Below, one piece after another: positions 3,878 to 58,523 of a stretch of 64,000 nucleotides of DNA. A program made the translations under genes and the position numbers. Each line of letters starts with the position of its first letter. The stretch's first letter is position 1. This stretch comes from an uncultured Candidatus Binatia bacterium (GTDB lineage Bacteria; Desulfobacterota; Binatia; DP-6), in contig CAYSOF010000011.1 in NCBI GenBank assembly GCA_964432595.1, positions 47,757 to 111,756 on the forward strand, given 5' to 3'. The notes beneath the pieces were generated by a model. The model was not told the DNA's origin, ran no database searches, and saw only the letters and a program-made list of their open reading frames with translations.

Positions 3878-5257
3878 ATGCTCCGACTCGTCGCCGCTCT
3901 GGTCGTCCCGCCCCTCGTCATGATTCTGACACCCGCGCACGCCGCGTCCGGCAAAGGCGCCGGCTGCACCGCGGCCAAGCTCGTCGCCGCGGGCCAATAT
4001 CAGCTGTGCCGCGCCCAGGCCGACGCGAAGGCGGCGCGCAAGGGCATTCCCGCCGACCACACCCGGTGCGACGCGCAGCTGGCGAAGAAGTTCGCCCGCG
4101 CCGAGCAGCGCAGCGGCGGGACCTGCCCCACGACGGGCGACGAGGCGGAGGTCCGCCTGGCCGGGATGCGGCATGGCGACGCGATCGTCGACACGCTCAC
4201 CAGCGACGCCACGTGCTCCACGCAGGGCCTGCCGTTCGCGTACAGCTACATGATCACGAACCGTGCGACGCCGTTCGCCACCGAGATCCAGCAGGTCGTC
4301 CCGGCGGCGGCCGGTGCGCTGACGTACTTCACCGCGCCCGGGCCGTACGTCTCCCAGAACGTGTCGAACGCCTACACGGAGGTCTCGCAGGCGACGTTCG
4401 TCGAGCGGCTGCAGGCCGACCTCGCGCTCACCGCGTCGGGCGGCGCGCTCCATCTGGGCCTCTACGTCCATGGGCTCGGCAACGTCTTCACCGACGCCCT
4501 CTCCGAGGCGGCCGAGTTCGGGTGCAACCTGGCGACACCGGGGGCGTGGCCGGGCCTCCTGATCGGCTTCTCGTGGCCGAGCTACGACCTCGTCGGGTCG
4601 ACGCTCTTCTACGCGACCACCGGTCCGCCCCCGCCGCCCCTCGTTCCGCAGCGCAGCGGCTCGATCCGGGACAACATCCTCGGCAGCCGCGAGAGCTTCC
4701 AGAGCCTGCTGACGCTGCTCGCGGACGACGTCCTGCAAGGCGCGCCGTCGCCCGTCACGCTGACGCTGCTGACGCACTCGGAAGGCAACTACATGCTGAT
4801 GACGGGGCTGGGGGCCGCGACGTCGTCGCCGCCGATCGCCGAGTGCCTGATGCTGGCCGCCGACATCTCGTCGGTGTCGCTCCAGACCGGCGAGCAGGGC
4901 GACGGCATCACGAGCCGTTGCGACGACGTCACGGTGTACTACTCCGGCGCCGACCCCGACCTGGTCACGTCGGACTACGAGTTCTTCGCCTACCATCGCG
5001 CGGACTACCCGACGCGACTCGGTCTGATCGGCCCACACTACCTGCCCGATCCGACGCCGCTGGCGGCGAACGTCGAGGGCCTCGACTGCTCGCGTGTGAC
5101 CGTCTCCCCCGCCGTCGGCAGCATCATCGACGTGCACGGGTCGTATCGCAGCGTGCCGAAGATCCTTGCCGACATGACGGAGACGATGCTCGGGCAGCCG
5201 ACGACCGGCCGCACGCCGATCGACGGGACGACGCAAGGCTTCGTCCTCGTTCCGTAG
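3878..5257 (+). CDS. secreted hypothetical protein, possibly alpha/beta-hydrolase-like
   Basis: Signal peptide MLRLVAALVVPPLVMILTPAHAASG. Cys-rich N-terminus. A nucleophile-elbow-like LTHSEGN motif. The in-frame GTG at 3767 was rejected as the start in favour of the ATG at 3878, which gives a canonical signal peptide. Confidence 0.6.
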   Translation: MLRLVAALVVPPLVMILTPAHAASGKGAGCTAAKLVAAGQYQLCRAQADAKAARKGIPADHTRCDAQLAKKFARAEQRSGGTCPTTGDEAEVRLAGMRHGDAIVDTLTSDATCSTQGLPFAYSYMITNRATPFATEIQQVVPAAAGALTYFTAPGPYVSQNVSNAYTEVSQATFVERLQADLALTASGGALHLGLYVHGLGNVFTDALSEAAEFGCNLATPGAWPGLLIGFSWPSYDLVGSTLFYATTGPPPPPLVPQRSGSIRDNILGSRESFQSLLTLLADDVLQGAPSPVTLTLLTHSEGNYMLMTGLGAATSSPPIAECLMLAADISSVSLQTGEQGDGITSRCDDVTVYYSGADPDLVTSDYEFFAYHRADYPTRLGLIGPHYLPDPTPLAANVEGLDCSRVTVSPAVGSIIDVHGSYRSVPKILADMTETMLGQPTTGRTPIDGTTQGFVLVP

Positions 5258-5329
5258 TGGTTGCTCCAGCGGGAGCGGCGGCGCATCGTCGGCGCCGTCG
5301 TCAACCGCAGATTGGAGGGAGGATCCGCG

Positions 5330-5941
5330 ATGATCACGCTGTACCATTCCCCGCAGAGCCGTTCCGGACGTCCGCGCTGGCTGCTCGAAGAGATCGGCGT
5401 CCCGTACGAAGTGAAGCGCCTGGACCTGCAGGCGGGCGAGCAGAAGACGCCGGAGTACCTGAAGCTCAATCCGAACGGCGCCGTGCCGACGCTCGTCGAC
5501 GGCGACACCGTGCTGTGGGAGTCAGCCGCGATCTGCCAGTACCTGGCCGACAAGTTCCCCGAGAAGAACCTGGCCCCGAAGGTCGGCACGCCCGAGCGCG
5601 GCAAGTACTACCAGTGGATCCACTACGCGATGTCGGGCCTCGAGCCGCCCGCCGTCACGATCTTCCTGCACACGGTCTTCCTGCCGGAGGCGGAACGCCT
5701 GCCGCAGCTCGTCGACGGCGCACGCCAGCAGATCGCCGCGGCCGTGCAGGTCCTCGACGACGCGCTCGCCGGCCGCGAGTGGATCCTCGGCAGTCAGTTC
5801 AGCGCGGCCGACGTGATGATCGGCTCGACGCTGATGTGGTGTCAGATGATGGGCATGGTCGACCCGGCGAAGCAGAACGTCGCCGCGTATCTCGCCCGCT
5901 GCATGGCGCGACCGGCCGTGCAGCGCGCGAACGCCGACTGA
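5330..5941 (+). CDS. gst: glutathione S-transferase
   Basis: GST N-terminal thioredoxin-like fold (MITLYHSPQSRSGRPRWLLEEIGVPYE...NPNGAVPTLVDGDTVLWESAAICQYL) and alpha-helical C-domain. GGAGGGAGG RBS upstream of the ATG at 5330. Confidence 0.85.
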   Translation: MITLYHSPQSRSGRPRWLLEEIGVPYEVKRLDLQAGEQKTPEYLKLNPNGAVPTLVDGDTVLWESAAICQYLADKFPEKNLAPKVGTPERGKYYQWIHYAMSGLEPPAVTIFLHTVFLPEAERLPQLVDGARQQIAAAVQVLDDALAGREWILGSQFSAADVMIGSTLMWCQMMGMVDPAKQNVAAYLARCMARPAVQRANAD

Positions 5942-5997
5942 TCAGCACTCACGGAGACCGTGGGCGGCCGTCTCCGATGGGAGACGGCCGCCGCCGC

Positions 5998-8196
5998 TCA
6001 GCCCCCGTTCTGCGCCGGCACGTAGTCGCGGCACGGCTGGCCGCGGAGCCCCGGGCACGGCGGCAGCGCGTCGGGCGCGTCGCCGTTGGGCACCACCGAC
6101 AAGACGACCCGCGACGCGCGCTCGTAGGTGCGCGCCACGTCGTTCACCACCGTGCCGTCGGTGTCGTAGGTGGCGAACGCCCAGCTCGTGCGGTCGCCGC
6201 CCGGCGCCTCGACGCTCACCCGGATGCGCGAGCCGGCGCGGAACACGTGCGCCGACGCGAACAACGCGACGCGCAGGAGCTCGAAGTCGCCCGGCATGGG
6301 CTCCGCGTCCTTCTCGAGATGGGTCGGACGGGGATCCGTGCGCGTGGTGGCGCGACGATCGAGCTTGCGATGGCTGGCGCGGAGCCAGCCGCTCTGCACG
6401 TAGTACTCCTTGCCGTCGGGACGGATCTCCGAGAGCGTCACCTGGAGATCGGTGTCCGCAGCGCTCGAGCGCAGCCACAGGTCCACGCTGCCCGGGCCGA
6501 CGACGGTGACGTCGTTCGCGAGCGGCTCGGTGGCGTACGCGACCGCGGTATCCCCGAGGAGCGGCCGCCAATCGTACGACGGGATCACCGCCCACGGATC
6601 GGACTGGCCGCTGGTGCCGAGGGTCCGCATCGGACGCGCCTCCGGATCGGGACGGAACGTGTCGTAGTCGTCGCTGCCGCGCGGCGCGCGGCGACGGACG
6701 AGCGCGCCGTCGTCGCCGAAGTAGAGCTTGGTGGGCCGGGCCTTCGGCGGCGGCCACTTCGTGTAGCCGAGCTCGAAGCGCGGCGCCGGCAGACCGGCGA
6801 CGGCCGACCCGCCGCCGTTCTCCATCAGCACGCGCACGTGCGGATCGGACTCGAACAGCTTCCGGGCGGCCTCGAGGCTGGTGATGCCGTCGTAGCGGTC
6901 GGCGGGCACCGGCGGCGTCGGCGCGCCGCCACCGAGGATCTGCGAGTAGATGATGGGCGCGATCGGGGCCGCGCGGCTCGGGTCGGGAATGCGCTTCGCC
7001 ACGTAGATGTCGAGGAACGCGATCCAGTTCCACAGGATCGCCGGCTCCATCGGGCTCGTGTGCACCCCGTTGATGACGCTGATCTTGACGTCCTTCCGGC
7101 GCGGAAACTTGCGCAGCATGGACGCGAAGTCGCCGCCCGTCTGCTCGTCCTGGAAAGCGGCGGCGTAGAACATCGGCACCTGGATCTTCGACACCCAGTT
7201 GATCGGCGAGCGCGGGTCCATCAGCACGTCGTCGTAGTACGGACGCGTCTGCGTGAACTCGATCGGGTCGAGCGTCTGCAGGCGGAGGCGCTGGTTCGCG
7301 GCGCACGTCTGGTCGCCGTTGTTGACGCGACGGCGCGCCCATCCCTGGCCGCCCTGCGGCGCCGGGGCGGCGTCGTCCTTGCGCTCCTGGAGCCAGCTCT
7401 GCGCGAAGCCGTTGTTGAAGATGCCGCCGGGGAAGCCGGGCGAGCGGTAGATGTCGGCGATGGTCGAGAACGGCGCCACCGCGGCGAGATGCGGCGGGCG
7501 CGCGCCGGCGACGAAGAGCTGGCTGATGCCGGGGAACGAGATGCCGATCATGCCGACGACGCCGTCCTGCACCCACGACTGCGCGGCGACCGTCTCGACG
7601 ATGTCGTAGCCGTCTGCGGTGGTGGGCAGGTCGAAGAGGTCGATGACGCCGCCCGAGCAGCCCGAGCCGCGCATGTTGACGCCGACCGTGGCATAGCCGA
7701 GCGCGCTGGCGAGCAGCGACGACGGCTCGGAGCGATCCGGATCGGAGACCGCGTACCCCGAGTACTCGATGAGCGTCGGGAACGGACCGTCGGCGAGCGT
7801 CTTGCCGAGCGGCGGACGGACCATCGCCGAGAGCAGCGTACCGTCGCGCGCCTGGATGTACTGGAACCCGGCGACGAGTGTCTTCCCGGCGTAGAACCCT
7901 GCGTCGGGGTGATCCTCGAACACGAGCGTCGTGACCGCCGTCGGCGCGCCGCCGTTCGTCAGGTCGCGGAGCCAATAGGTGTTGCCCTCGCCGAGCTCGC
8001 GGAACACCAGGCTGCCGAAGGCGTCGGTGACCCCCTGCGACAGCTCGGCATGGTGCTCGTCGTCGAGCGCGATCTGGGTACCGGGGGCGGCGTCCTTCAC
8101 GGCGACGAAGCCGATACCGGACTGCACGGTAAGGGCCGCGGCCTGCGCGACGGATGCGAGCAGGGCGCAGAGGGACAGAAGCACGATTCGGCGCAT
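5998..8196 (-). CDS. CocE/NonD-family (S15, X-Pro dipeptidyl-peptidase-like) secreted hydrolase
   Basis: Signal peptide MRRIVLLSLCALLASVAQAAA with a GAGGAG RBS. Nucleophile elbow GMIGISFPG (GxS[YF]xG). Long C-terminal beta-sandwich typical of CocE/NonD. Confidence 0.8.
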   Translation of the reverse strand: MRRIVLLSLCALLASVAQAAALTVQSGIGFVAVKDAAPGTQIALDDEHHAELSQGVTDAFGSLVFRELGEGNTYWLRDLTNGGAPTAVTTLVFEDHPDAGFYAGKTLVAGFQYIQARDGTLLSAMVRPPLGKTLADGPFPTLIEYSGYAVSDPDRSEPSSLLASALGYATVGVNMRGSGCSGGVIDLFDLPTTADGYDIVETVAAQSWVQDGVVGMIGISFPGISQLFVAGARPPHLAAVAPFSTIADIYRSPGFPGGIFNNGFAQSWLQERKDDAAPAPQGGQGWARRRVNNGDQTCAANQRLRLQTLDPIEFTQTRPYYDDVLMDPRSPINWVSKIQVPMFYAAAFQDEQTGGDFASMLRKFPRRKDVKISVINGVHTSPMEPAILWNWIAFLDIYVAKRIPDPSRAAPIAPIIYSQILGGGAPTPPVPADRYDGITSLEAARKLFESDPHVRVLMENGGGSAVAGLPAPRFELGYTKWPPPKARPTKLYFGDDGALVRRRAPRGSDDYDTFRPDPEARPMRTLGTSGQSDPWAVIPSYDWRPLLGDTAVAYATEPLANDVTVVGPGSVDLWLRSSAADTDLQVTLSEIRPDGKEYYVQSGWLRASHRKLDRRATTRTDPRPTHLEKDAEPMPGDFELLRVALFASAHVFRAGSRIRVSVEAPGGDRTSWAFATYDTDGTVVNDVARTYERASRVVLSVVPNGDAPDALPPCPGLRGQPCRDYVPAQNGG

Positions 8197-19726: not shown

Positions 19727-22456
<2,730 letters not shown>

Positions 22457-22460
22457 CGCC

Positions 22461-25189
<2,729 letters not shown>

Positions 25190-25196
<7 letters not shown>

Positions 25197-36636: not shown

Positions 36637-36820
36637 CGAGCGCTCCGATGCCGGAGCCGGTCGGCACGTCACACCACGACGCGGGGCTGCCACGTCCCGG
36701 ACGTAGCCCATCCGCGCACGGAAAACATCTCGGGCCTGCCGCCCTTCCCCGGGTTCCGCCCGGCGTTCTCCCGTCATGTCAGGAGTACACGGATGCGGCG
36801 ATTCGCGGATAACGATCGTC

Positions 36821-39544
36821 ATGCGTGCTCTCGCCGTCCTGCTCGCCCTCGCGCTGCCCTCGCTCGCCCTGGCCCAGGCCGCACGGAACGTCGAGCCCGT
36901 CGTCCTGACCGGCGCCGAGGTGCCGGCGTGGTCGCGGCTTCCCGCCCTCACCGTGTGCGCCCCGTATCCCTCGGGCACGACCGGCGGCCGCGACGCGCAC
37001 AACGGCACGACCATCGTCCCGCCCGACGTTCGCACCGGCGTCGCCGTCGACGACGTCGTGGCGTTCCGCTGGACGGGGCTCGCCTGGGTCGAGATCCGGG
37101 TGCAGGTCGACGAACGCTTCGACTACTGCCTGTCGAACCCGCCGTCGGACTTCGCGCTGTACTCCGGCACGGACAAGGAGCTCACGTACGCGTGGGACGT
37201 CGAGAGCTGGAAGAAGACCGACGGCCAGTGCGTCGCCGCCTATCCGCCCGGCGCCGCGCCGACGCCGGATCCCGTCGCCACGCTCGACGACGACGACGAG
37301 ATCGTCTTCATGGCGAGCGACGCGGGCCAGCAGGCGCCGCTGGCGGTGCTGACGCCGCCCGGCACCAGCAACGGCCAGGCGGTCGCCGTGGTCGACCCGT
37401 TCGATCCCACGGCGCCGGCGTTCGTCTACCTCTTCCTGCGCGCCGGCGGCTCGTCGTTCGACGCGTCGAGCGGCTACGTCGACTATACGCGCGATGCGAA
37501 CGCCGACGAGTGGATCGATCGCCACTCGATCGCCGCCGACGACCCCGAGATCCTCGGCGTCAGCAACACCGGCTACGGCCCGAACCTGCCCGGCGACGTC
37601 TGCCGCACGGCCGTGTCGCCCGGCTATCCGGCGACGCCCGACGGTGCGCCGCGCCCGTCGACGGACCGCTTCGTGCGCGACGGCGTCACCGTCGCCACCG
37701 ACGCCTACGAATGGCGCGCGACCGGCCGTTGGATGGTGCGCGGCCTGCGCGTCGCGAAGCCCGGACAGCCGGGCGTCTACGGCCCCGACCTGATCGACCG
37801 CTGGAAGGGGCGCGCGTTCCAGCAGAGCCCCGACTCGACGATCTCGCTCGTCGGCTTCGAGGACGAGCAGGTGAACTGGGAGGCGAACAGCGCGCTCCTC
37901 GGCGAGCGCGTCGGGCCGGTGCGCGCGATCCGCGAGGTGTGGGGCGCCGACTCGGGCACCAACGTCACGAAGACCGAAACCTTCTATCGCGACGCGGTGG
38001 CGTACCGGTACCACGTGCGCGTCCATCCCATCCCGCCCGACGGCCTCTACACGTCGTGGGACTACAACGCCGGCGTCGCCACGCGGTACTACAACCTGCT
38101 GAAGCCGAACGGCGTCGCGATCGACGGCGTCAACGACGACGTCGGCAACGTCGACGGCCTCTTCGGCGTTCCCGCGTTCTTCGATGCGCCCGACCCGACG
38201 TTCAACGTGCCGAGCGCGATCCTCAACTGGGAGCAGATCTCGGGCGCCGGCGACGCCGGCGCGCTCGTCTACATCCTCGAGCTGAAGGGCGCGACGACGC
38301 TCGTGAACCCGGCCGTCGTGCCGTACTACCGCGACGACAAGTGCCTCGACGACGGCACGGGCGACGACCCGGTCGCGCGGCCCTGGCCCGGCGAGGCGTC
38401 GACCGACCCGCGCGTGCAGGCCGGCTATGCCGCCGCGGCGGGCGGCACGCCCTACCCGCAGCTCACGTGCGACCAGAAGCAGGGCGCCTGGGGCGCGCAC
38501 GGCGTCCACTACTTCGTCACCGGCGACAGCGACAACGCCGCGTCGCCCGAGGTGCTGACGGAGATCGACGCGCAGCAGTGGCAGTTCACCGTGCCGACGG
38601 CGGCGCCGGCGAACGTCGCGCAGCCCTACGCGAACACGGTGATCCTGCCGCTCCTGACGGTCGTCACGCCGATCGTCGGCCCGCCGCCGCTGCTCGCGCC
38701 GAGCGCGGCCGACGCGTCGGCCGTCACGCCGCAGGACACGCCGGTCGGCGTGACGCTCGCGGGCGGCGATCTCCTGACCTGCGAGCTCGGCTTCACGATC
38801 GTGACGCCGCCCGCGCACGGCACGCTCGGCGCGATCACGGGCGAGGCATGCACGCTCGGCCTGCCGTCGTCGGACACCGCGCGCGTCACCTACACGCCGG
38901 AGCCGGGCTACGCCGGCAGCGACGCGTTCACGTACCGCACGAACGACGGTCTGTTCGACTCGTCGCCGGCGTCCGTGTTCCTCACCGTCGAGCCGCTGCC
39001 GCCGCCGACCTGCGCGAACGGACCCGTCGTCGGCTGCCGGCGGCCGGTGCGGACGGACAAGGCGACGCTGTCGGTGACGGACCGCTCGCCCGACGTGAAC
39101 GACGAGCTGACGTGGAAGTGGACCGCCGGCGCGGCGACGACGCTCGCCGACTTCGGCACGCCGCTCACGACGACGAGCCATCAGCTGTGCGTCTACGACG
39201 GCGCAGGCGACACGGTCGCTCGCGCGAGCGTGCCGCCGGGCGGGACGTGCGACGGCCGGCCGTGCTGGTCGGCGAAGGGCAGCCGCTATCTGTACCGGAG
39301 CCGCGAACGCGTTCCCGGCGGCGGCAAGCGCAGCACGCTCCGGCTGACGCTCGCGGCCGGCATCGACGGCAAGGCGAAGATTCTCCTGAAGGGCCGCGGC
39401 GTCCACTTCGGGCTCGACGCCCTCCCCTGGGCGCAGCCCGTCGTCGTGCAGCTGAAGAACGGCGAGGGCGAGTGCTGGGAGGCACGGTACGACGCGCCGG
39501 CGCGGCGCAACCAGCCGGGACGGTTCCTCGACAAGGGTGACTGA
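36821..39544 (+). CDS. large secreted protein with Ig/cadherin-like domain and C-terminal recurrent beta-domain
   Basis: Signal peptide MRALAVLLALALPSLALAQA. Ig-like unit (VTYTPEPGYAGSDAFTYRTNDG). C-terminal ~180 aa domain shared with four other proteins in the window. Confidence 0.75.
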   Translation: MRALAVLLALALPSLALAQAARNVEPVVLTGAEVPAWSRLPALTVCAPYPSGTTGGRDAHNGTTIVPPDVRTGVAVDDVVAFRWTGLAWVEIRVQVDERFDYCLSNPPSDFALYSGTDKELTYAWDVESWKKTDGQCVAAYPPGAAPTPDPVATLDDDDEIVFMASDAGQQAPLAVLTPPGTSNGQAVAVVDPFDPTAPAFVYLFLRAGGSSFDASSGYVDYTRDANADEWIDRHSIAADDPEILGVSNTGYGPNLPGDVCRTAVSPGYPATPDGAPRPSTDRFVRDGVTVATDAYEWRATGRWMVRGLRVAKPGQPGVYGPDLIDRWKGRAFQQSPDSTISLVGFEDEQVNWEANSALLGERVGPVRAIREVWGADSGTNVTKTETFYRDAVAYRYHVRVHPIPPDGLYTSWDYNAGVATRYYNLLKPNGVAIDGVNDDVGNVDGLFGVPAFFDAPDPTFNVPSAILNWEQISGAGDAGALVYILELKGATTLVNPAVVPYYRDDKCLDDGTGDDPVARPWPGEASTDPRVQAGYAAAAGGTPYPQLTCDQKQGAWGAHGVHYFVTGDSDNAASPEVLTEIDAQQWQFTVPTAAPANVAQPYANTVILPLLTVVTPIVGPPPLLAPSAADASAVTPQDTPVGVTLAGGDLLTCELGFTIVTPPAHGTLGAITGEACTLGLPSSDTARVTYTPEPGYAGSDAFTYRTNDGLFDSSPASVFLTVEPLPPPTCANGPVVGCRRPVRTDKATLSVTDRSPDVNDELTWKWTAGAATTLADFGTPLTTTSHQLCVYDGAGDTVARASVPPGGTCDGRPCWSAKGSRYLYRSRERVPGGGKRSTLRLTLAAGIDGKAKILLKGRGVHFGLDALPWAQPVVVQLKNGEGECWEARYDAPARRNQPGRFLDKGD

Positions 39545-39612
39545 GCGCATGCCGGGTGCGCCGAGCTTTTGCCGTTGACCTCCGTGGGCGCCGATCCGTA
39601 CAGTCCGGACGC

Positions 39613-42441
39613 ATGTGGCTCGTCCCGCGTGTCCTGGCGGGGTGCGCGCTCCTGCTCCTGTGCGGGTCGCGCGCGACGGCCGCGCTCGTCCTCGACGCGG
39701 CGACGGTCACGGTCCGCCCGGCACGCACCGACTCGTTTCAGCTGAAGGGCCGGCTCGGACCCACGTCGCTCGACGGCGCCACCGCGATCACCGTCGCGCT
39801 GGGACCGTTCTCGATGCAGGTCCCGCTCGACCGGGTGAAGCGGAAGAAGCAGCTCGTCACCTTCCGCGACAAGGCGCCCGGCGCGCGCATCAGCCGGCTG
39901 CGCCTGGACCTGCGGCGCGGCACGTTTCTGGTCGTCGGCGACGAGTGGGTGCTCGCGAACCTGCCGAACCCGCTCGACGTCGCGGTAGGGACGACCGCCG
40001 GCGCGGACTGCCGGACGGTGCGCCTCGAGAACCCGAAGGCGCGACGGCCGCGGAAGCGCGCGCCGTCCGTCGTCCGTCTCGTGCTGGCCAAGAACGGCGA
40101 CGCCGGCGCCTGCGGCACGCTCGCGGCGCCGCGCCCGCGTCCGGTCGCCGTCGTCGCCGGCACACCGACGTCGGTGCTGTTCGAGGTCGACGCGACGACC
40201 GTCGACGCGGGCAGCGTCCAGCTCGTCCGCCTGGACGCGGCCGGCCGCCCGACCGGCGAGCCGGTGTGCACGATGACGTCGGACGGGGCGCGGCTCTCCT
40301 GTACGACGACGATCGCCGAGACGTCGCCGGGCGACGTCACCTTGTTCGTCCGCGGCACCGCGGGGGGCGCGCCGGTGGCGTCGACGGGCTTCGTCCTGCC
40401 GATCGTGCCGCCGCGCAGCGCGGCGGACGCCGCGATGCTCGCGCAGGCCGACGCCGGCGTCGTCCAGGCACGCGACGACGCGTTCGCCCGGCTCGGCGAC
40501 ACGCTCGCCGCGCGCATGGCGCTGCTGCGCGCGCTCGCCGCGGTGCCGGGCATCTCCGGCGCCGCGCTCAGCCCGAACGGCGTCGACGTCGTCTACCGCT
40601 ATGCGAACGGCTGGCTCGGCGGGCTGATCCTGAACCGCGGCCTCGGCACCATCCCCACGCCGTCGGTGGCGACGACCCGTCCGGCCGCCGTGCGCCCGCG
40701 CCCATCGCCCCGCGTCCTCTTCCGCACGTGCGGCGGCGCCGAAGGCGTCTGCTGTCAGCCGAAGGATCGGCGCCAGGCGCTGCTCCGACGCAACGTCCTC
40801 GTCTGGGACGCGGGCTACTTCGGGCCGGGCCGAGACGACGCGCCGGTCGTCGCCGCCAAGTTCGCCGAGTGGGCGTGCCTGGGCCACCAGGTGACGACCG
40901 TCTTCGGCGCCGCCGCGACCGTCGCGTCGGTGAAGCAGTTCACGAGCGCCGCGACGCTCGTGATCTCCACGCACGGCGTGGTGAACAAGTACGGCCGCGT
41001 GATGTTCGCCACCGGCGAGACGATCTCCGACAGCCGCGACGAGCTTCACCACGACGACCTGGTCTTCGGCCTGGTCGGACGGTACCCGATGACCGACACC
41101 GTCGGCATCTACACGGTCTCCGAGGACTTCGTCCGCGTGCTGCCCGGGAGCTTTCCCGAGCGCGCGATCGTCTACGCGAGCTATTGCTACAGCGGCTACG
41201 AGGACGCACTCGCGGCGTACGTGTCGAAGGGCGCGGGCGTCGCGTTCGGCTACGACTGGAAGGTGCACGACACCTACGCGATCGACGTCGCGACGCAGCT
41301 GTTCGACGGCCTGCTCGCCGGCTTCAAGACGGCCGGCGACGCGTACGACGCCGTCGAGCCGAAGCGCGACCCCACTCCGCTGACCGGCTCGCTGCCCGGG
41401 CGCGAGCCCGACACGTGGCTCGAGTTCACGCTGCCCGCCTCCTTCGTCTCGCAAGGCAACCAACGGATCGCCTACGTCGCCCAGCCCGACATCACGCCCG
41501 ACGCGTCGACCGTCGGCCCCGGCGAGTCGGCGACGCTGACCGCGTCCGCAGAGGGCGCGGGGACGTGCCCGCTCGAGTACCACTGGTACACGGAGGGCAC
41601 CGCCGGCGACCTCACGGGCGATACGGGGACGAACGACTTCGAGTCGACGGAGCCGACCGCCACCTACACCGCCCACGAGGAGCCCGACGCCGACGACGAC
41701 GCGGTCGCGGTCGAGCTGTCGTCGCCAGAGAGCGACGGCATCGGCACGAGCTGCGCCGAGGCGAGCGTCGTGACGACGTCGACCAGCAGCACGACGACGA
41801 CGTCGACGACGGTGCCGACCTGCGGTGCGGGCGTCGTGCTGTCGGCCGTCGTCACCGAGGAGATCCTCGCCGGCGCGTTCGCCACGTCGATGGGAACGAA
41901 CGATCAGCATCCGTTCACGTTCCCGCAGACGGCGATCCCCGTCACGCCGACGGCGAACGACGCGAAGCCGTGGAACGAGGTCGCGACGGCCGGCGGTGCC
42001 GCCGCGACCAGTATCGGCGACATCAGCTGGACCGTCGCCCCCTGCGCGATCACCGCGAGCGGCACGTTCGAGGAGTCGAGCATCGGCGGCTCGGCCACCG
42101 CGGCGGCGCAGACGGGACTCGACGCCACGCTGCAGATCGCCTTCGAGGTGTCGCGCGAGGCGCCGTATCACCTCGAGGGCTTCGTCCAGGCCTCCGGCAC
42201 GGCGAAGGACGGCGACAACACGGTCTTCTACGCGCGCTGCTCGGCCAACGGGATCGGCATCGTCGAGGCGAGCCTGCAGAACCCGACCGGCGTCCCCGTC
42301 CCGTTCGAGCGCGACAGCACCGCCTTCCCGGGCGAGGAGCTCATGATAATTTGCGGCGTCAAGCGCGGCGGCGCCAGCGCCGACGGCACCGGCGACGACA
42401 TGGGGACCGTGGACTGGAGCTTCACGTTCACGTTCCAGTGA
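39613..42441 (+). CDS. large secreted protein with N-terminal recurrent beta-domain and clan-CD (caspase/gingipain-like) peptidase-like domain
   Basis: Signal peptide MWLVPRVLAGCALLLLCGSRATA. His/Cys dyad context RNVLVWDAGY...ATLVISTHGVVN...AIVYASYCYSGY. Thr-rich linker. Confidence 0.7.
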   Translation: MWLVPRVLAGCALLLLCGSRATAALVLDAATVTVRPARTDSFQLKGRLGPTSLDGATAITVALGPFSMQVPLDRVKRKKQLVTFRDKAPGARISRLRLDLRRGTFLVVGDEWVLANLPNPLDVAVGTTAGADCRTVRLENPKARRPRKRAPSVVRLVLAKNGDAGACGTLAAPRPRPVAVVAGTPTSVLFEVDATTVDAGSVQLVRLDAAGRPTGEPVCTMTSDGARLSCTTTIAETSPGDVTLFVRGTAGGAPVASTGFVLPIVPPRSAADAAMLAQADAGVVQARDDAFARLGDTLAARMALLRALAAVPGISGAALSPNGVDVVYRYANGWLGGLILNRGLGTIPTPSVATTRPAAVRPRPSPRVLFRTCGGAEGVCCQPKDRRQALLRRNVLVWDAGYFGPGRDDAPVVAAKFAEWACLGHQVTTVFGAAATVASVKQFTSAATLVISTHGVVNKYGRVMFATGETISDSRDELHHDDLVFGLVGRYPMTDTVGIYTVSEDFVRVLPGSFPERAIVYASYCYSGYEDALAAYVSKGAGVAFGYDWKVHDTYAIDVATQLFDGLLAGFKTAGDAYDAVEPKRDPTPLTGSLPGREPDTWLEFTLPASFVSQGNQRIAYVAQPDITPDASTVGPGESATLTASAEGAGTCPLEYHWYTEGTAGDLTGDTGTNDFESTEPTATYTAHEEPDADDDAVAVELSSPESDGIGTSCAEASVVTTSTSSTTTTSTTVPTCGAGVVLSAVVTEEILAGAFATSMGTNDQHPFTFPQTAIPVTPTANDAKPWNEVATAGGAAATSIGDISWTVAPCAITASGTFEESSIGGSATAAAQTGLDATLQIAFEVSREAPYHLEGFVQASGTAKDGDNTVFYARCSANGIGIVEASLQNPTGVPVPFERDSTAFPGEELMIICGVKRGGASADGTGDDMGTVDWSFTFTFQ

Positions 42442-42790
42442 GCGCCCGATAGCGCGCGAGGAGCCGCCGGCCCTTGGCGGCGATGCGGCATGCTGCCGCC
42501 ACCGTCTTCGGCACGGGTTCGCCCCACGCCGCGGCGCTGAGCGCGAAGCGCGTCGGCCTACCCTTGGCGTCGACCAGCTTCGGGAGCGTCGCGCCGGCAG
42601 GCCGCCGTGCGGGTCTTTGGTCTTCTTCCGTGCAAGGTCTTCCGCTTGGCCGGCGCCTTGCGCTTCGCTGTCGATCGCGTCCGCTTGGGCTTCGGCCGGT
42701 CCCACGGCGCGTTTCGCTTCCGTGTGGCCATGCCCGGACGCTATCCCCGCCGCCCTCGACGTCAATCTCCCATCGCAGTATGGAGGCGCC

Positions 42791-43360
42791 ATGACCCTGA
42801 ACGAGCTGCTCAACACCCCGAACGTGACGCCCGAACGCGTCCAGTCCCATCTCGCCTCGCTCTCCGGCGACGAGCGCGTCCGCCAGGCCACGCAGCTCGA
42901 TCGCCGCCATCACAAGGCGCTCTGGGATCTGTCCGCCAACACCCCGCCCATCCAGCTCGAGGAGGTCGTCGGGACCGAGCGGGCGCCGCTCGATCCCGTG
43001 CCGTTCGAAGGCCAGAACAACCAGCCGATCTACCGCCCCTTCAAGAAGGTCTTCTACCGCACGACGAACGGCACGATCGGGGGCTACAACGACAGCCCGG
43101 CCGCGTGGTTCGCGGGCCCCGGCTACTACCTGCTGAAGCGCGACGACTCCGGCGTCTACGTCGACTATACGGAGGTCCCGAAGGACAAGCCGGCGTCGTG
43201 GCCGCCGATCAAGCCGAACGACACGGGCATCTCCCAGTTCGTGTACGGCCACATGAAGGACTACCTGCGGCGCGTGTACGGCCGCGTCTTCATCGGCCGC
43301 GCCTATCGCAAGGGCAAGGAGTCGCCGAACTTCTTCGTCCTCGCGCGCCCGGAGGTATGA
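42791..43360 (+). CDS. hypothetical protein (189 aa)
   Basis: ggagg RBS and an ATG start. K/N/Y-containing composition. First gene of a three-gene co-directional set. Confidence 0.55.
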   Translation: MTLNELLNTPNVTPERVQSHLASLSGDERVRQATQLDRRHHKALWDLSANTPPIQLEEVVGTERAPLDPVPFEGQNNQPIYRPFKKVFYRTTNGTIGGYNDSPAAWFAGPGYYLLKRDDSGVYVDYTEVPKDKPASWPPIKPNDTGISQFVYGHMKDYLRRVYGRVFIGRAYRKGKESPNFFVLARPEV

Positions 43361-43602
43361 CCAGGGCCGCCGTCGCCGTCGGGCTCGTCCTCGTCGTCGG
43401 CGCGCCGGCGCTCGGGCAGCTCGCGCCCGGCTGGCCCGCGGACGACCGTCCCGGCCAGGCTCTCGATCGACAGCGCGGCGAGTCGCTCGACGACTACCAC
43501 CGGCGCCTCGAGCAGTGGCGCGACAGCTCGCACGACGAGCGTCGCGAGATGCTCGATCGCCGCCCCGGCAGTGGGGGCGCCGGCGAGGAGCCCGAGGAGT
43601 AG
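43357..43602 (+). CDS. small secreted protein (81 aa)
   Basis: ATGA overlap with the upstream gene. Signal peptide MTRAAVAVGLVLVVGAPALG. Charged C-terminal half. Confidence 0.45.
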   Translation: MTRAAVAVGLVLVVGAPALGQLAPGWPADDRPGQALDRQRGESLDDYHRRLEQWRDSSHDERREMLDRRPGSGGAGEEPEE

Positions 43603-43607
43603 CGGCC

Positions 43608-44534
43608 ATGTCGCCCGCCACCGTGCCGCTCGCGACCGGGCTCGGCGTGTGGATCGGTGCCGCGCTGTACGTGCACTGGCGGGGCCGCGAGCGCTTGAGC
43701 TTCATGCGGCAGCTCGCCGATCACTCGACGCTGCTCGCGCCCTACAACGCGTTCGTCTACCTCTGCTCGGCCGTCCCCCGGCGTCCGCGGCTGGACGTCG
43801 ACGCGTTCCCCGAGCTGCGCGTGCTGCGGGAGAACTGGCAGACGATCCGCGACGAGGGCCTGGCGCTCCATGCCGCCGGCCACGTCCGCGTGGCGGAGCG
43901 GCACAACGACCTCGCGTTCAACTCGTTCTACAAGCGCGACTGGCGCCGCTTCTATCTGAAGTGGTACGGCCGCCCCCTGCCCTCCGCGACGTCGCTGTGT
44001 CCGCGCACGGTCGAGCTCCTCGCCCACACGCCGAGCGTGCACGCCGCGATGTTCACGATGCTCGCGCCGAAGAGCCACCTCGTGCGGCATCGCGACCCCT
44101 TCGCGGGCTCCGTACGCTTCCATCTCGGCCTGTCGACGCCGAACTCCGACGACTGCCGCATCTTGATCGACGGCGAGCCGTATCACTGGCGTGACGGCGA
44201 AGCGGTGGTCTTCGACGAGACCTACATCCACCGCGCCGAGAACCGTACCGACATGCCGCGGTTGATCCTGTTCTGCGACGTCGAGCGCCCGCTGCGCGGG
44301 CGTCTCGCCACCGCGATCAACCGGTTCGCGATCCATCGGGTGATGGGCATCACGGCGACGGCGAACGTCGACGGCGAGCCCGTGGGCATCGCCAACCGCG
44401 TGTTCGAGCGCGTGTACCACGTGCGCCTGCTCATGAAGCGCCTGCGCAAGCGCAGCCGCCCCCTCTACTACGCGCTGTCCTGGGGCACGAAGCTCGGCGT
44501 GGCGGCCCTGCTCGTCTGGCTCGCGCTCGGCTAG
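43608..44534 (+). CDS. aspartyl/asparaginyl beta-hydroxylase-family 2OG-Fe(II) oxygenase, membrane-anchored (LpxO/OlsC-like)
   Basis: N-terminal TM LATGLGVWIGAALYVHW. AspH-family core (LAPKSHLVRHRDPFAGSVRFHLGL...ETYIHRAEN). Confidence 0.8.
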   Translation: MSPATVPLATGLGVWIGAALYVHWRGRERLSFMRQLADHSTLLAPYNAFVYLCSAVPRRPRLDVDAFPELRVLRENWQTIRDEGLALHAAGHVRVAERHNDLAFNSFYKRDWRRFYLKWYGRPLPSATSLCPRTVELLAHTPSVHAAMFTMLAPKSHLVRHRDPFAGSVRFHLGLSTPNSDDCRILIDGEPYHWRDGEAVVFDETYIHRAENRTDMPRLILFCDVERPLRGRLATAINRFAIHRVMGITATANVDGEPVGIANRVFERVYHVRLLMKRLRKRSRPLYYALSWGTKLGVAALLVWLALG

Positions 44535-44612
44535 GGAGAGAGAGTCGCAGACCGCACAGCATGCCGTCTTTTTCGTTGACCGCCGAAAGCGGCCGACGGT
44601 ACGTATTCCGGG

Positions 44613-47600
44613 ATGCGCATCGCGGCTCTGCTCCTGGCCTGCGCCATCGCGACCCACGCGTTCGCCGCCTCCGGCGACCTCGACCCGACGCTGCTCGGCG
44701 GTCGCGTGCAGACCGACTTCGACGGCTGGTTCGACCAGGCGCAGGCGGTCGTGGTGCAGCCCGACGGCGCGATCGTCGCCGCCGGACTCGTGCGGCGGAA
44801 GATCGGCGAGACGGGCGGCGGCATCCCGCTCTTCCGGGCCGAGCTGGGCCTCGTGCGCTACACGGCGACGGGCGCGATCGACGAGACGTTCGGCGACGAG
44901 GGCATCGTCCGCACCGACTTCGGCGAGGACGTCGACGTGCGCGTGCTGTTGCGCGATCCCGCCGACGGCGACCTGATCGCCGTCGGCAACACGCCGTCGT
45001 TCCCGCGGAAGGTCGTCTTCGCGCGTTACGCGGCGAACGGAACAGCCGACACGAGCGTCGGCGGCGGCACCGGACGCGTCGTCACGGCGGTACCGGGCTT
45101 CGCCTACGCGGGCTACGTGCGTGCCGACGGCACGATCATGATCGGCGGCAGCGGCCTCAACTTGAGCGGCTTCGACGCCTTCCTGCTCGCACGCTTCCTG
45201 GCGAACGGCACGCCCGATCCGGCCTTCGACGGCGACGGGTTTCTGATCTCCAGCCAGGGCGCGGCCATCCGCGGCATGTTCGAGGAGCCGGACGGCGACG
45301 TCGTCGTCGGCGGCTGGGTGCAGAGCGGGAGCATGAACGGCTTCCGCAACGTCGTCGTCGCGCGCTTCACCGCTGCCGGCGCCGTCGACAACGGCTTCGG
45401 CCCGAGCGGCACCGGCCGCACGGTGATCGACTACTTCAACTCCGAGGACGAGGGCCGCGCGCTGACGCGGCTCGCCGACGGCCGGCTCGTCGTCGCGGGC
45501 TTCGCGATCCAGGGCTCGGGCGTGAGCGCGCAGAAGCACTTCGCCCTCGCGTGGCTCGACGCGAACGGCGTCCTCGACCCCGCCGTCGCCGGCGGCACCG
45601 GCAAGGTGACGACCGACGTCGTCGGCGACGGCATCGTGCGCAACCTGCTCGTCCAGTCGGCCGGCGTCGTCGCGGTCGGCGAAACCGGGTCGGGCCTCGA
45701 GGTCACGGCGCTCGCGAGCGACGCCCCGGAGCTGACGCTCGTCCGCTACGGCGCGACGGGCTCGATCGACGCGGCGTTCGGCGACGACGGCACGATCACG
45801 CACCGCCTGCGCGCGACGGAGGCGCCGCGCGCCGCCGTGCTCCAACCGGACGAGAAGCCCGTCGTCGTCGGGCGCGTGCGCGAGGACTGGCACGTGCTGC
45901 GGCTGACGCCCACCGGCCAGGCCGACACCACGTTCGGCAGCGGCGGCCGCGTCCTCATCCAGGGGGACGAGTTCCTCCAGGCCTCCGGGGGGGCGCTCCA
46001 GGACGACGGCAAGATCCTCGTCGCGGGCAGCGGCCTCTGCCGCGTCGACTGCGCCGTGTTCCAGTTCCAGCAGCGCATGGCGCTCACCCGGCACCTGCCC
46101 GACGGCCGGCTGGACGCCCAGTTCGGCGAGCTCGGCCTCGCGATGCCGACGTTCACCAGCGCCAGCTCGCAGGTCGCGATGGGCGCGGTCGTCCTGCCCG
46201 ACGACACGATCCTCGCCGGCGGGACGTCGCGCGCGGCGGTGTTCGGCGAGGACGACGACTTCGCGGTCGCGCACCTGGGCGCGGACGGCACGCCCGACGC
46301 CGCGTACGGTACCGGCGGCCTCGCCCTCGCCGACTTCGCGGGCGGCGACGACGTCGCCGTCGGGATGACCGTGCAGCCCGACGGCAAGGCGATCCTCGTC
46401 GGCGAGGTGCCGCAGGGCAACGGCATCGTGTTCGGCGTCGCGCGCTTCACCACCGCCGGCCAACCCGATCCGACCTTCGGCGGCGACGGCACGGTCACGA
46501 CCGACCTGCCGGGAGTCATCGACCGCGCCCAGAGCGTCATCGTCCAACCCGACGGCACGATCGTCGTCGTCGGCACGAGCTACGACGACCAGTCGGGCGT
46601 CGTCGCCCTGGTGCGTTACACGTCGACCGGCACGCCCGATCCCGCGTTCGGGACGAACGGCATCGTGCTGACGCCGGTGACCGCCAACTTCGACGGCGGC
46701 GCCGACGTCATCCGCCGCGGCGACGGGACGCTGGTCGTGTCCGGCTGGGTCGACTTCGGCGGCGACGAGGACTTCCTCCTGCTCCGCTACCTCGAGAACG
46801 GCACGCTCGATGGTTCGTTCGGCACCGGCGGCATCACCCGCACCGACCCGTTCGGCTTCCACCGCACCGACGAGGCGATCACGCTGACGGAGGCGCCCGA
46901 CGGCCGGCTGCTCGTCATCGGCGACACGGTCCACGCGACGGACGACTTCGTCGTCGCGCGCTTCAGCGCGGGCGGCGTCCTCGACACCGCCTTCGGCGCG
47001 GGCGGGCACATGCTCGTCGACCTCTTCTCCACGCCGGACTACGATCCGCGCGCGGCGCTCCTGCAGCCCGACGGCCGGCTCGTCGGCATCGGCACGACCG
47101 ACGGCATGGGCTTCTTCCGCATGGAAATGGCGGGCGGCCCGCAGGCCACGTTCCCGCCGACGCCACCGTCCACGACCACGAGCACGACCGTGCCCGGCGG
47201 CTCGACGACCACCACGACGACGACGGTTCCGGGCGGCACCACCACGACCACCACGACGACGGTCCCCGGCGGCACGACGACGACCACCACGACCCTGCCC
47301 GCCAGCGCCGAGATCTGCGGCAACTGCGTCGACGACGACGGGGACGGCGACGTCGACTACGACGACGCGCAGTGCTGCGCCGCCACCGGCGCGCTGTCGG
47401 TGCGAAAAGCGCAGCTCAAGCCCGGCACGGCGGGCACGAAGCTGAAGCTCACGGCACAGCTCGGCGGCGCGGGCTTCGCGACCGTCGACCCGACCGGCGC
47501 CGATCTCTACGTCCGGCTCGCCGCGGGCGACGGCACGACGCTCCTCTGCACGCGGATTCCCGCGGCGAGCGTGAAACGCAAGAAGAAGGGCTTCCAGTTC

Positions 47601-47831
47601 GCCGACAAGGGCGGCTCCGTGGCGTCGGGAATCTCCAGCGTCAAGGGCAAGCTCCTGAAGACGCAGCAGCTCCAGCTCGTCATCCAGGGGAAGCGCGCGC
47701 GGACGGGCACGCCGGCGGCGGGCGCCATCGGGCTCACGCTGGCGTACGACGCGGGCGCACGCGGACAGTGCGCAAGCGCGGTGCAGACGTTCCGCACGAT
47801 CGGCAAGAACAAGGGCGTCCGCTACCCCTGA
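44613..47831 (+). CDS. delta-60 repeat domain secreted protein
   Basis: Signal peptide MRIAALLLACAIATHAFA. About 14 repeats of ~60 aa with D[PT]xFGxxG cores (DETFGDEGIV, DPAFDGDGFL, DTTFGSGGRV, DPTFGGDGTV...). Poly-Thr linker and C-terminal recurrent domain. Confidence 0.85.
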   Translation: MRIAALLLACAIATHAFAASGDLDPTLLGGRVQTDFDGWFDQAQAVVVQPDGAIVAAGLVRRKIGETGGGIPLFRAELGLVRYTATGAIDETFGDEGIVRTDFGEDVDVRVLLRDPADGDLIAVGNTPSFPRKVVFARYAANGTADTSVGGGTGRVVTAVPGFAYAGYVRADGTIMIGGSGLNLSGFDAFLLARFLANGTPDPAFDGDGFLISSQGAAIRGMFEEPDGDVVVGGWVQSGSMNGFRNVVVARFTAAGAVDNGFGPSGTGRTVIDYFNSEDEGRALTRLADGRLVVAGFAIQGSGVSAQKHFALAWLDANGVLDPAVAGGTGKVTTDVVGDGIVRNLLVQSAGVVAVGETGSGLEVTALASDAPELTLVRYGATGSIDAAFGDDGTITHRLRATEAPRAAVLQPDEKPVVVGRVREDWHVLRLTPTGQADTTFGSGGRVLIQGDEFLQASGGALQDDGKILVAGSGLCRVDCAVFQFQQRMALTRHLPDGRLDAQFGELGLAMPTFTSASSQVAMGAVVLPDDTILAGGTSRAAVFGEDDDFAVAHLGADGTPDAAYGTGGLALADFAGGDDVAVGMTVQPDGKAILVGEVPQGNGIVFGVARFTTAGQPDPTFGGDGTVTTDLPGVIDRAQSVIVQPDGTIVVVGTSYDDQSGVVALVRYTSTGTPDPAFGTNGIVLTPVTANFDGGADVIRRGDGTLVVSGWVDFGGDEDFLLLRYLENGTLDGSFGTGGITRTDPFGFHRTDEAITLTEAPDGRLLVIGDTVHATDDFVVARFSAGGVLDTAFGAGGHMLVDLFSTPDYDPRAALLQPDGRLVGIGTTDGMGFFRMEMAGGPQATFPPTPPSTTTSTTVPGGSTTTTTTTVPGGTTTTTTTTVPGGTTTTTTTLPASAEICGNCVDDDGDGDVDYDDAQCCAATGALSVRKAQLKPGTAGTKLKLTAQLGGAGFATVDPTGADLYVRLAAGDGTTLLCTRIPAASVKRKKKGFQFADKGGSVASGISSVKGKLLKTQQLQLVIQGKRARTGTPAAGAIGLTLAYDAGARGQCASAVQTFRTIGKNKGVRYP
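47187..47294 (+). repeat. imperfect 36-39-bp tandem repeat x3 encoding the TVPGG(S)T7-8 linker
   Basis: Units accgtgcccggcggctcgacgaccaccacgacgacgacg / gttccgggcggcaccaccacgaccaccacgacgacg / gtccccggcggcacgacgacgaccaccacgacc. Confidence 0.6.
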
Positions 47832-56962: not shown

Positions 56963-58384
56963 TCACTGCGCCGCGTTCGTGAGATCCATCTCCCAGTAGA
57001 GGAAGTTGGTCGTCTGGTCGAAGATCTCCGTCTTGTGCGCGACGTAGGGCACGTGGCCCGCCCCCGCCCAGGTGGTCAGGAACGAGTCGAGACCGGCGGC
57101 CGTCGCCGCGTTGACCGTACCCACGGCCCACGAGTACGGCACGACGAAGTCCGACGTGCCGTGGAAGAGCAGGCTCGGCGCGTCGCCGGCGTTGACCGCC
57201 GGTCCGATCCGGGCGCCCGAGAGCGACACGGCCGCGGCCACCGACGCGGCCGCGTTCTCGGCCGAGGCGAACCCGACGTTCAGCGCCGTGATCGCCCCCG
57301 CGGACGTGCCGGAGATGGCGATCCGCGTCGTGTCGATGCCGTACGTCGCGGCGTTGGCGCGGAGGTACTGGACGGCGGTCTGCGCGTCCTGCTGCGCCTC
57401 GGTGATCGCCGTGATGCAGAGCGGGGTCACGCCGCCGGCCGAGCAGCCGGGCGGCTCCAGGCGATACGAGATCGAGACGTTCAGGTAGCCCTTGCGCGCG
57501 AACAGCATCGCCTGCTCGACCAGCTCGGGCGACGTCTTGCTGCCGGTCGCGAACGAGCCGCCGTGCACCCAGACGATCGCGGGCCGCTCGGTCTCGGGGT
57601 CGCCGATCGGCTGGTAGACGTCCATCAGCAGCGTGACCGTCTGCCCCGACGCATTCACCGCGCTGCCGTACACGACGTTGCTCGTCACGCTGGAGCCGCC
57701 GAAGACCAGATCGCGGTAGCGGAGCGGCGCCGGGCCCGGCGGTACGCGGAACGGAATCGGCGGCAGCGTGGTCGTCGTGGTGGACGTCGAGGTGGTCGTC
57801 GTGGTGGGCGCGATGCAGGAGCCCTGCAGCGTGGGCTTCGCGATCTTGAAGTAGGTGTCGCCGGTCGTCGTCACCCGGCCGTCCGCGAAGAGCACGCTGT
57901 ACGAATCGCCCCCGGCGATGGTGAGCAGCGCGCAGCCGGCGCCCGGTCCCGGCGGCACCAGCGAGACCGCGCCGAGCCGCCCGTCGATCGCGATCTTGAT
58001 CTGGAACGTCCCGCCCTTGCTCTTGAGCTCGGCGCTCTTGACCGGGCCGTTCTCGCCCTTCGCGTCGCGGTACTTGAAGCCCTTCACGGCGTCGCCCGTC
58101 CAGAACGGCTTGCCGCTCGTGGCGCTGTTGCCCGCCGGCAGCGCGTAGACGTCTTCGCTCGACGTCACGCCGTCGAGCGTGACCGTGAGCGATGCGCCGT
58201 TGGCGACCGGATCGCCGACGAGCGTGGCGTCGGTGGCGGTCTCCTTCGCCTTGATCGAGACGGCCCGACGGTCGGGCGGGCCCGGATTCTTCACCGTCAG
58301 GTCCTTGCCGAGCACCGTCTGGTCGGCCGCATGGACCGGCGACACGGCCAGCGAGAGCGCGAGGGCGAGCAGCAGGCGACGCAT
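56963..58384 (-). CDS. secreted alpha/beta-hydrolase esterase/lipase with N-terminal recurrent beta-domain
   Basis: Signal peptide MRRLLLALALSLAVSPVHA with a GGGAGG RBS. HGG oxyanion motif (IVWVHGGSFATGS). GxSxG (ISGTSAGA). N-terminal domain contains the KGFKYRD...GGTFQIKIAIDG motif. Confidence 0.75.
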   Translation of the reverse strand: MRRLLLALALSLAVSPVHAADQTVLGKDLTVKNPGPPDRRAVSIKAKETATDATLVGDPVANGASLTVTLDGVTSSEDVYALPAGNSATSGKPFWTGDAVKGFKYRDAKGENGPVKSAELKSKGGTFQIKIAIDGRLGAVSLVPPGPGAGCALLTIAGGDSYSVLFADGRVTTTGDTYFKIAKPTLQGSCIAPTTTTTSTSTTTTTLPPIPFRVPPGPAPLRYRDLVFGGSSVTSNVVYGSAVNASGQTVTLLMDVYQPIGDPETERPAIVWVHGGSFATGSKTSPELVEQAMLFARKGYLNVSISYRLEPPGCSAGGVTPLCITAITEAQQDAQTAVQYLRANAATYGIDTTRIAISGTSAGAITALNVGFASAENAAASVAAAVSLSGARIGPAVNAGDAPSLLFHGTSDFVVPYSWAVGTVNAATAAGLDSFLTTWAGAGHVPYVAHKTEIFDQTTNFLYWEMDLTNAAQ

Positions 58385-58523
58385 CAGGGAACCTCCCATG
58401 GGACCTCCGTCGGAACAGGGCTGGAACGCGGCGGGCGGCGAGACCCTACCATTGCGCCTGGTACCCGGGTCAATGGTGTTTCGCCGGTCTTCACCGCGCC
58501 CGGGTGCGCGCTATCGTCGTCGC

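Follow-up and report, generated by a model that had tools for sequence, protein, structure and literature searches.

The clan CD peptidases are defined by a central β-sheet of strand order 2-1-3-4-5-6, five helices and a small β section between β3 and α3, with the catalytic His at the C-terminal end of β3 and, later in the sequence, the catalytic Cys at that of β4 (PMC4357240). Among the systems closest to the protein described here are the CHAT proteases (SAVED-CHAT, 8tl0; the periplasmic tetratricopeptide repeat (TPR)-CHAT protein DdvA, 8rot/8rw5; Craspase TPR-CHAT/Csx29; and separase, C50), together with the gingipains RgpB and Kgp, the caspases and their relatives, and legumain. We analysed a 64,000-nucleotide stretch (the window) from an uncultured Candidatus Binatia bacterium (assembly GCA_964432595.1, contig CAYSOF010000011.1, positions 47,757 to 111,756 of the forward strand), in which an open reading frame (ORF) at 39556–42441 encodes a protein of 961 amino acids (aa). 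This protein is best explained as a clan CD endopeptidase that is secreted and at first latent, in which Cys544 is the nucleophile and His473 the general base, a reading to which we give a probability of about 0.68. An earlier note, made from the sequence alone, had suggested that it could be a secreted protease or a processing domain, and that interpretation is supported by a predicted clan CD fold, an invariant His-Cys dyad and Sec-type leaders. The features that carry it are the following, the count referring to the 150 listed homologs of a phmmer search with the full-length query, as do all later counts out of 150:

39556–42441, + strand: whole gene, 961 aa counted from the GTG start of the ORF list
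40783–41475, + strand: predicted clan CD catalytic domain, aa 410–640, in about 140 of the 150 listed representatives
40972–40977, + strand: putative catalytic His473 with Gly474 ('THG'), in the loop that follows the β3-equivalent strand
41185–41193, + strand: Cys544, the putative nucleophile, within C-x-S546, in the loop that follows the β4-equivalent strand

All three motifs flagged in the earlier note lie in frame in the 961-aa ORF, namely the Rossmann-like start RNVLVWDAGYFG (aa 412–423, nucleotides (nt) 40789–40824), the His motif LVISTHGVVN (aa 468–477, nt 40957–40986, with His473 at nt 40972–40974) and the Cys motif AIVYASYCYSGY (aa 537–548, nt 41164–41199, with Cys544 at nt 41185–41187). 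His473 and Cys544 are 71 residues apart, matching the distance of about 70 given there. The order and spacing had also been called typical of clan CD; the order, His then Cys, holds, but the spacing does not, since solved members have 23–46 residues between the two (42 in caspase-7, 46 in PmC11, 23 in RgpB by the numbering of PMC4357240, and 45 in the CHAT domain of DdvA, PMC11506125).

An exhaustive HMMER search with aa 395–645 against 1.84 billion representatives returned 181 representatives, each standing for a cluster at 50% identity, at E ≤ 1e-3, with 55 at E ≤ 1e-10, so that a family of homologs exists. A word-indexed homolog search, with either the single domain or a 51-sequence family alignment (A1) as query, gave no matches. 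Conservation was counted over the query and 94 matched domains that cover most of the catalytic domain (n = 95). In this set His473 and Cys544 are the sole columns kept in 95/95 domains; they are flanked by Gly474 (93/95) and Ser546 (83/95), and Thr486 (87/95), Gly559 (92/95) and Gly565 (90/95) are conserved elsewhere. In alignment A1, whose mean column identity is 32%, just two columns are likewise invariant, H79 and C150 (domain numbering). As judged from these alignments, the conservation of His473 and Cys544 is well beyond that of chance motifs.

When the single sequence was given to AlphaFold2, the predicted local distance difference test score (pLDDT) was 35 and no usable model resulted; with A1 as input, pLDDT rose to 95.5 and the predicted template modelling score to 0.92, with agreement among all five models. 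The model is an α/β/α sandwich with a central, mostly parallel β-sheet, and it superposes on solved clan CD members. In domain numbering, it runs through β 19–24, α 34–44, β 51–56, α 63–70 and β 73–77 to His79, followed by short strands at 80–82 and 88–95 and by α 98–109. An inserted hairpin (113–117 and 123–128) and a short helix (129–133) then lead to β 143–148 and Cys150, after which come α 159–163, β 166–172, α 178–194, α 199–205 and three more strands. This order of elements matches the published clan CD topology throughout, the hairpin being the sole addition and accounting for the 71-residue His-Cys spacing. The putative dyad would sit on the loops that follow the β3- and β4-like strands, which are neighbours in the central sheet. 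The catalytic domain is thus predicted to have the caspase-hemoglobinase (clan CD) fold, as the earlier note had claimed; that note had named a structure prediction lacking this fold as evidence against its claim, and the prediction made here gives the fold. It had also named a His and Cys lying apart, and the fold match and strand positions suggest that the two are close.

Structural comparison gave figures of 16.5 for SAVED-CHAT (8tl0), 14.9 for RgpB, 14.5 for yeast separase, 14.0 for DdvA CHAT, 13.7 for Kgp, 13.1 for metacaspase-9, 11.8–11.9 for legumain/asparaginyl endopeptidase (AEP), about 11–12 for caspases and MALT1, and 10.7 for glycosylphosphatidylinositol (GPI) transamidase. The nearest structural neighbours are CHAT or separase domains, and the C80 cysteine protease domain (CPD) of MARTX, TcdA and TcdB, which has a β-flap in place of α4/α5, did not come out as the closest fold. 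By its predicted fold and dyad the domain belongs to clan CD, and by the sequence models of CHAT, C25 and C14 it lies outside those families.

The protein differs from each of these groups in further respects. 1) In contrast to the CHAT systems, it has no detectable TPR or helical-repeat arm (aa 1–400, Pfam at E ≤ 10), and the same region gives instead a weak match to fibronectin type III (FN3) domains; its N-terminal partners are family-specific modules, one of them probably FN3- or immunoglobulin (Ig)-like. The His-Cys spacing of 71 residues also exceeds the 45 of DdvA. The query stands alone, is exported by Sec and shows no link to CRISPR, CBASS (cyclic-oligonucleotide-based anti-phage signalling) or anti-sigma systems, as judged from the lack of PADLOC matches and from unrelated gene neighbourhoods. 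2) Identity to the gingipains RgpB and Kgp (C25, PF01364) is 10–11%, with no Peptidase_C25 match; no evidence was found in the query of a type IX secretion C-terminal domain, and the organism is Binatia-like, not a member of the Bacteroidota. The layout is reminiscent of RgpB, in which a 229-residue N-terminal prodomain is followed by the catalytic domain and, directly after β6, by an Ig superfamily domain (PMC4357240); the query has a conserved 370-aa N-terminal region and sub-threshold Ig matches at aa 643–705. 3) Compared with the caspases, metacaspases, paracaspases and orthocaspases (C14) and with legumain (C13), it has no Peptidase_C14 or Peptidase_C13 Pfam match and carries an extra β-hairpin and short helix between α3 and β4 as well as additional C-terminal strands.

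The window has a GC content of about 72% and long ORFs in many frames. That 39556–42441 (+) is a real gene follows from its GC content by codon position (0.67/0.56/0.95), which shows the same pattern as other genes of the window, and from its full-length homologs (E values of 1e-247 to 2e-266, phmmer with the full-length query); orthologs in metagenome-assembled genomes (MAGs) of Binatia share 56–57% identity with the 961-aa protein across about 960 aa. An antisense ORF at 39286–42891 (−), 1201 aa in length and spanning the whole gene, was rejected as a high-GC artefact that gains no support from the codon-position test, one of many spurious long ORFs in the window. The true start is probably the ATG at 39613 (M20), giving a precursor of 942 aa.

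In nearly every complete homolog the N-terminus is a hydrophobic leader that ends in AxA and runs directly into a conserved 'LTLDAATV...DSFQLKGR', and in the query the mature protein after MWLVPRVLAGCALLLLCGSRATA begins with ALVLDAATV. Sec export and cleavage by signal peptidase I are well supported, for the protein and the family alike, by these leaders, as read by inspection, and by the shared mature start. The motif LAGC (39634–39645, aa 27–30), which lies inside the signal peptide, was considered as a lipobox and rejected, the homologs having AxA sites and no lipobox; lipidation there is unlikely on this comparison. The remaining features of the protein are as follows:

39613–39681, + strand: Sec (signal peptidase I) signal peptide MWLVPRVLAGCALLLLCGSRATA, identified by inspection, with the predicted cut after A-T-A
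39682–40125, + strand: family-specific N-terminal domain, aa 43–190, in about 46 of the 150 representatives
40132–40395, + strand: probable FN3/Ig-like β-sandwich, aa 193–280, with weak PDB matches to fibronectin type III domains and monobodies (E 0.02–0.2)
40396–40740, + strand: Ala-rich module, aa 281–395, probably helical and then β-containing, in about 80–87 of 150
41482–41775, + strand: Ig-like domain, aa 643–740, in about 37 of 150, with sub-threshold matches to Pfam ig, Ig_7 and Ig_3
41773–41811, + strand: Thr/Ser-rich linker TTSTSSTTTTSTT, aa 740–752, read from the sequence
41851–42438, + strand: C-terminal domain, aa 766–961, common to the 4–5 closest relatives only

The N-terminal domain (aa 43–190) has no Pfam, NCBIfam or PDB sequence match and is a candidate pro-region or substrate-binding module. 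The FN3/Ig-like module that follows is kept in about 60–70 of the 150 listed representatives, and the Ala-rich module, a near-constant companion of the catalytic domain, could be a pro-segment or, by analogy, a gingipain-like N-terminal subdomain. Downstream of the catalytic domain, the ig, Ig_7 and Ig_3 matches at aa 643–705 have E values of 0.006–0.03, below threshold. The C-terminal domain has no family match, and its hidden Markov model (HMM) matches only its own gene within the window.

In the earlier note the catalytic region was placed between a recurrent N-terminal domain and a Thr-rich linker. The linker is there (aa 740–752), but the recurrence has no statistical support: BLAST found no paralog within the window, and an HMM of aa 25–192 run across it gave marginal matches only (E 0.038 and 0.17). 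These fall in the C-terminal region of the DUF5122 propeller protein at 44613–47831 (aa 935–1022, E 0.038) and in a 478-aa secreted protein at 56963–58399 (−) (E 0.17). A strand pattern, 'K..L.V....D....K.K', can be seen by eye in several secreted proteins of the window, without statistical support, and may be what was taken for the recurrent domain. Separately, a vicinal pair, Cys399-Cys400 (40750–40755), lies just ahead of the catalytic domain and is kept without exception in the ten-sequence alignment A2, which comprises the query and the nine homologs closest to it, and Cys441 is kept in 66/95 of the wider family; these cysteines may form disulfides of the exported protein.

We propose that export, with removal of the signal peptide, probably yields a latent precursor, in which the approximately 370 residues of N-terminal modules and the downstream Ig-like domain would serve as pro-region and/or in substrate recognition, as in gingipains. 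The active enzyme would then cut other extracytoplasmic proteins. Thus we infer not only catalytic activity but also N-terminal latency, proteolysis in trans and a P1 preference. The last is probably basic (Arg/Lys), a tentative analogy with RgpB, whose S1 residue Asp163 sits on helix α1, and with the habit of most clan CD families of cleaving after Arg or Lys (PMC4357240). In the query family an acidic residue stands at the start of α1 (Asp428 in the query; Glu in 63/95 and Asp in 17/95), and Glu488 and Asp605 are also conserved in the same alignment.

Several results weigh against the reading as a secreted, latent endopeptidase. i) No model of Pfam, NCBIfam or PADLOC matches the protein at threshold. 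The match to CHAT (PF12770) scores 13.3–13.5 bits (E about 0.05) against a gathering cut-off of 24 and covers profile positions 114–166 only, the matched segment ending just past the His, and Peptidase_C25, C14, C13 and C11 give no Pfam match even at E ≤ 10. ii) Sequence searches of the PDB detected no clan CD relative; the full protein returned weak FN3 matches only and the A1 profile nothing relevant. iii) Every source name looked up for the family is 'hypothetical protein'. iv) Asp418 on L1 and Asp567 on L5 vary across the 95 domains. v) The prodomain role and the P1 prediction are both drawn by analogy. vi) Some clan CD folds keep their dyad and yet are held inactive, among them the CHAT domain of DdvA, with a His-Cys distance of 11.3 Å. 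vii) None of the window's neighbouring genes recurs at the five other loci examined. CHAT is, for its part, the sole recurrent Pfam family across A1, matched by 5/51 members with a best E value of 5e-5, and one family member tested against it reached 17.3 bits. A PDB search with a CHAT-leaning member returned beta-galactosidase matches only, which were set aside as spurious. An hhalign comparison of A1 with caspase-3 aligned only LVISTHG with CVLLSHG (His121) at 2% probability, which we do not count as evidence. Ten full-length homologs have no Pfam domains, save for a PEP-CTERM motif in one.

An intact dyad would also serve a domain that has no substrate other than the polypeptide it belongs to, which it would cut in cis or between copies to release the N-terminal modules or the C-terminal domain, on the model of the C80 cysteine protease domains of MARTX and the large clostridial toxins. 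This fits the internal position of the domain in a large secreted multi-domain protein and the flexible Thr-rich linker that leads into a variable C-terminal domain; DdvA periplasmic CHAT, among the best structural matches, has been proposed to cleave itself, and autoprocessing is common in clan CD enzymes (PMC4357240). The C80 domains are, as stated above, not the closest fold, and we regard self-processing as the sole function as unlikely, though it is the alternative we take most seriously. A different use of the same chemistry would be that of a transpeptidase or sortase-like enzyme, in which the acyl-enzyme is resolved by an amine and secreted proteins are joined to a cell-surface acceptor. 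GPI transamidase and the legumain-type ligases are precedents in clan CD, and PorU of type IX secretion is a further one. The nearest structural neighbours of the query, however, are hydrolytic proteases; the window's clustering of the gene with those for other large secreted proteins is kept at none of the five other loci examined, and the search for a C-terminal sorting signal common to such proteins gave HMM matches that are marginal at best. A transpeptidase is for these reasons improbable, and slightly more doubtful still is its particular form as a secreted PorU- or GPI transamidase-like enzyme that anchors the neighbouring Thr-linker proteins via their C-terminal modules, with its N-terminal modules recognising the cargo. 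We know of no such sorting enzyme in Binatia and relatives.

The two remaining explanations deny catalysis altogether. Under one of them the domain is a catalytically dead, protease-like binding scaffold, as in Raptor or c-FLIP. Such pseudo-enzymes normally lose the dyad, whereas here the His and Cys are kept in every aligned domain, with conservation of the neighbouring Gly and Ser as well, so that a dead scaffold is disfavoured and, in our view, very improbable. The other holds that the domain is no peptidase but a generic α/β domain, Rossmann-like or flavodoxin-like, in which the His and Cys motifs arose by chance; set beside the conservation and the predicted fold described above, this is scarcely credible. 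The secreted clan CD endopeptidase remains the explanation that we prefer.

The protein represents an unannotated sequence family of a protease clan that is very well known; its dyad and predicted fold are the standard ones, and its own features are the inserted hairpin and the particular set of N-terminal modules. A fold, a putative active site and a testable activity are thereby assigned to a family outside the coverage of Pfam, NCBIfam and PADLOC. If the activity is true, the family probably merits its own clan CD peptidase family, between CHAT/separase and the gingipains, and Binatia, whose extracellular biology is poorly known, would gain a secreted protease. Views on the mechanism of clan CD enzymes are unchanged; the value lies in annotation and peptidase classification and holds no surprise for specialists.

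A search of species-representative genomes with A2 found four loci, three of them in Candidatus Binatia MAGs (48–59% identity) and the fourth in an 'uncultured delta proteobacterium' MAG (44% identity), whereas a locus search with patterns drawn from the whole sequence gave no relatives. The Binatia MAG SMAG_U4345 carries two paralogs (L001 and L002, with 59% and 48% identity to the query domain), suggesting expansion of the family within Binatia. Further afield, the family has more distant members in a Bdellovibrionales MAG and in the cultured gammaproteobacterium Granulosicoccus antarcticus IMCC3135 (WP_169727508.1).

In the window, the gene lies downstream of that for a 922-aa Big_9 protein and upstream of those for a 247-aa unknown protein, an Asp/Asn β-hydroxylase and a 1072-aa DUF5122 propeller protein. 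The other loci carry genes for glutathione S-transferase (GST), a short-chain dehydrogenase/reductase (SDR), a sulfatase and phospholipase C, or for a DUF4394 protein, or for ManC, or for a reprolysin-like protease. A conserved neighbourhood or partner gene was rejected, synteny being found only between L001 and L003, which are orthologous loci of related MAGs. Since the neighbourhoods are not conserved, we regard the gene as a stand-alone unit and propose no substrate from its context.

Some further observations concern these neighbourhoods. The G. antarcticus homolog (positions 5154–7781 of locus L005, from CP018632.1) lies directly downstream of the gene for an 875-aa reprolysin-like secreted metalloprotease. 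A gene for ManC (mannose-1-phosphate guanylyltransferase) is found within about 7 kb of it and another near the L004 homolog, which is probably a coincidence. Region 36776–47831 (+) of the window is a same-strand run of genes for large secreted proteins (the 922-aa Big_9 protein, the clan CD protein and the 1072-aa DUF5122 protein), with the β-hydroxylase gene between them; the DUF5122 β-propeller protein has long Thr-rich linkers and the motif CGNCVDDDGDGDVDYDDAQCC. Elsewhere in the window, 19727–22456 (+) and 22461–25196 (+) are adjacent genes for sigma-54 activator paralogs that share 56% identity across about 905 aa. Both have Sigma54_activat, AAA lid and HTH_8 domains and similar N-terminal hydrophobic leaders, and a sensor-regulator seems to have been duplicated in tandem here.

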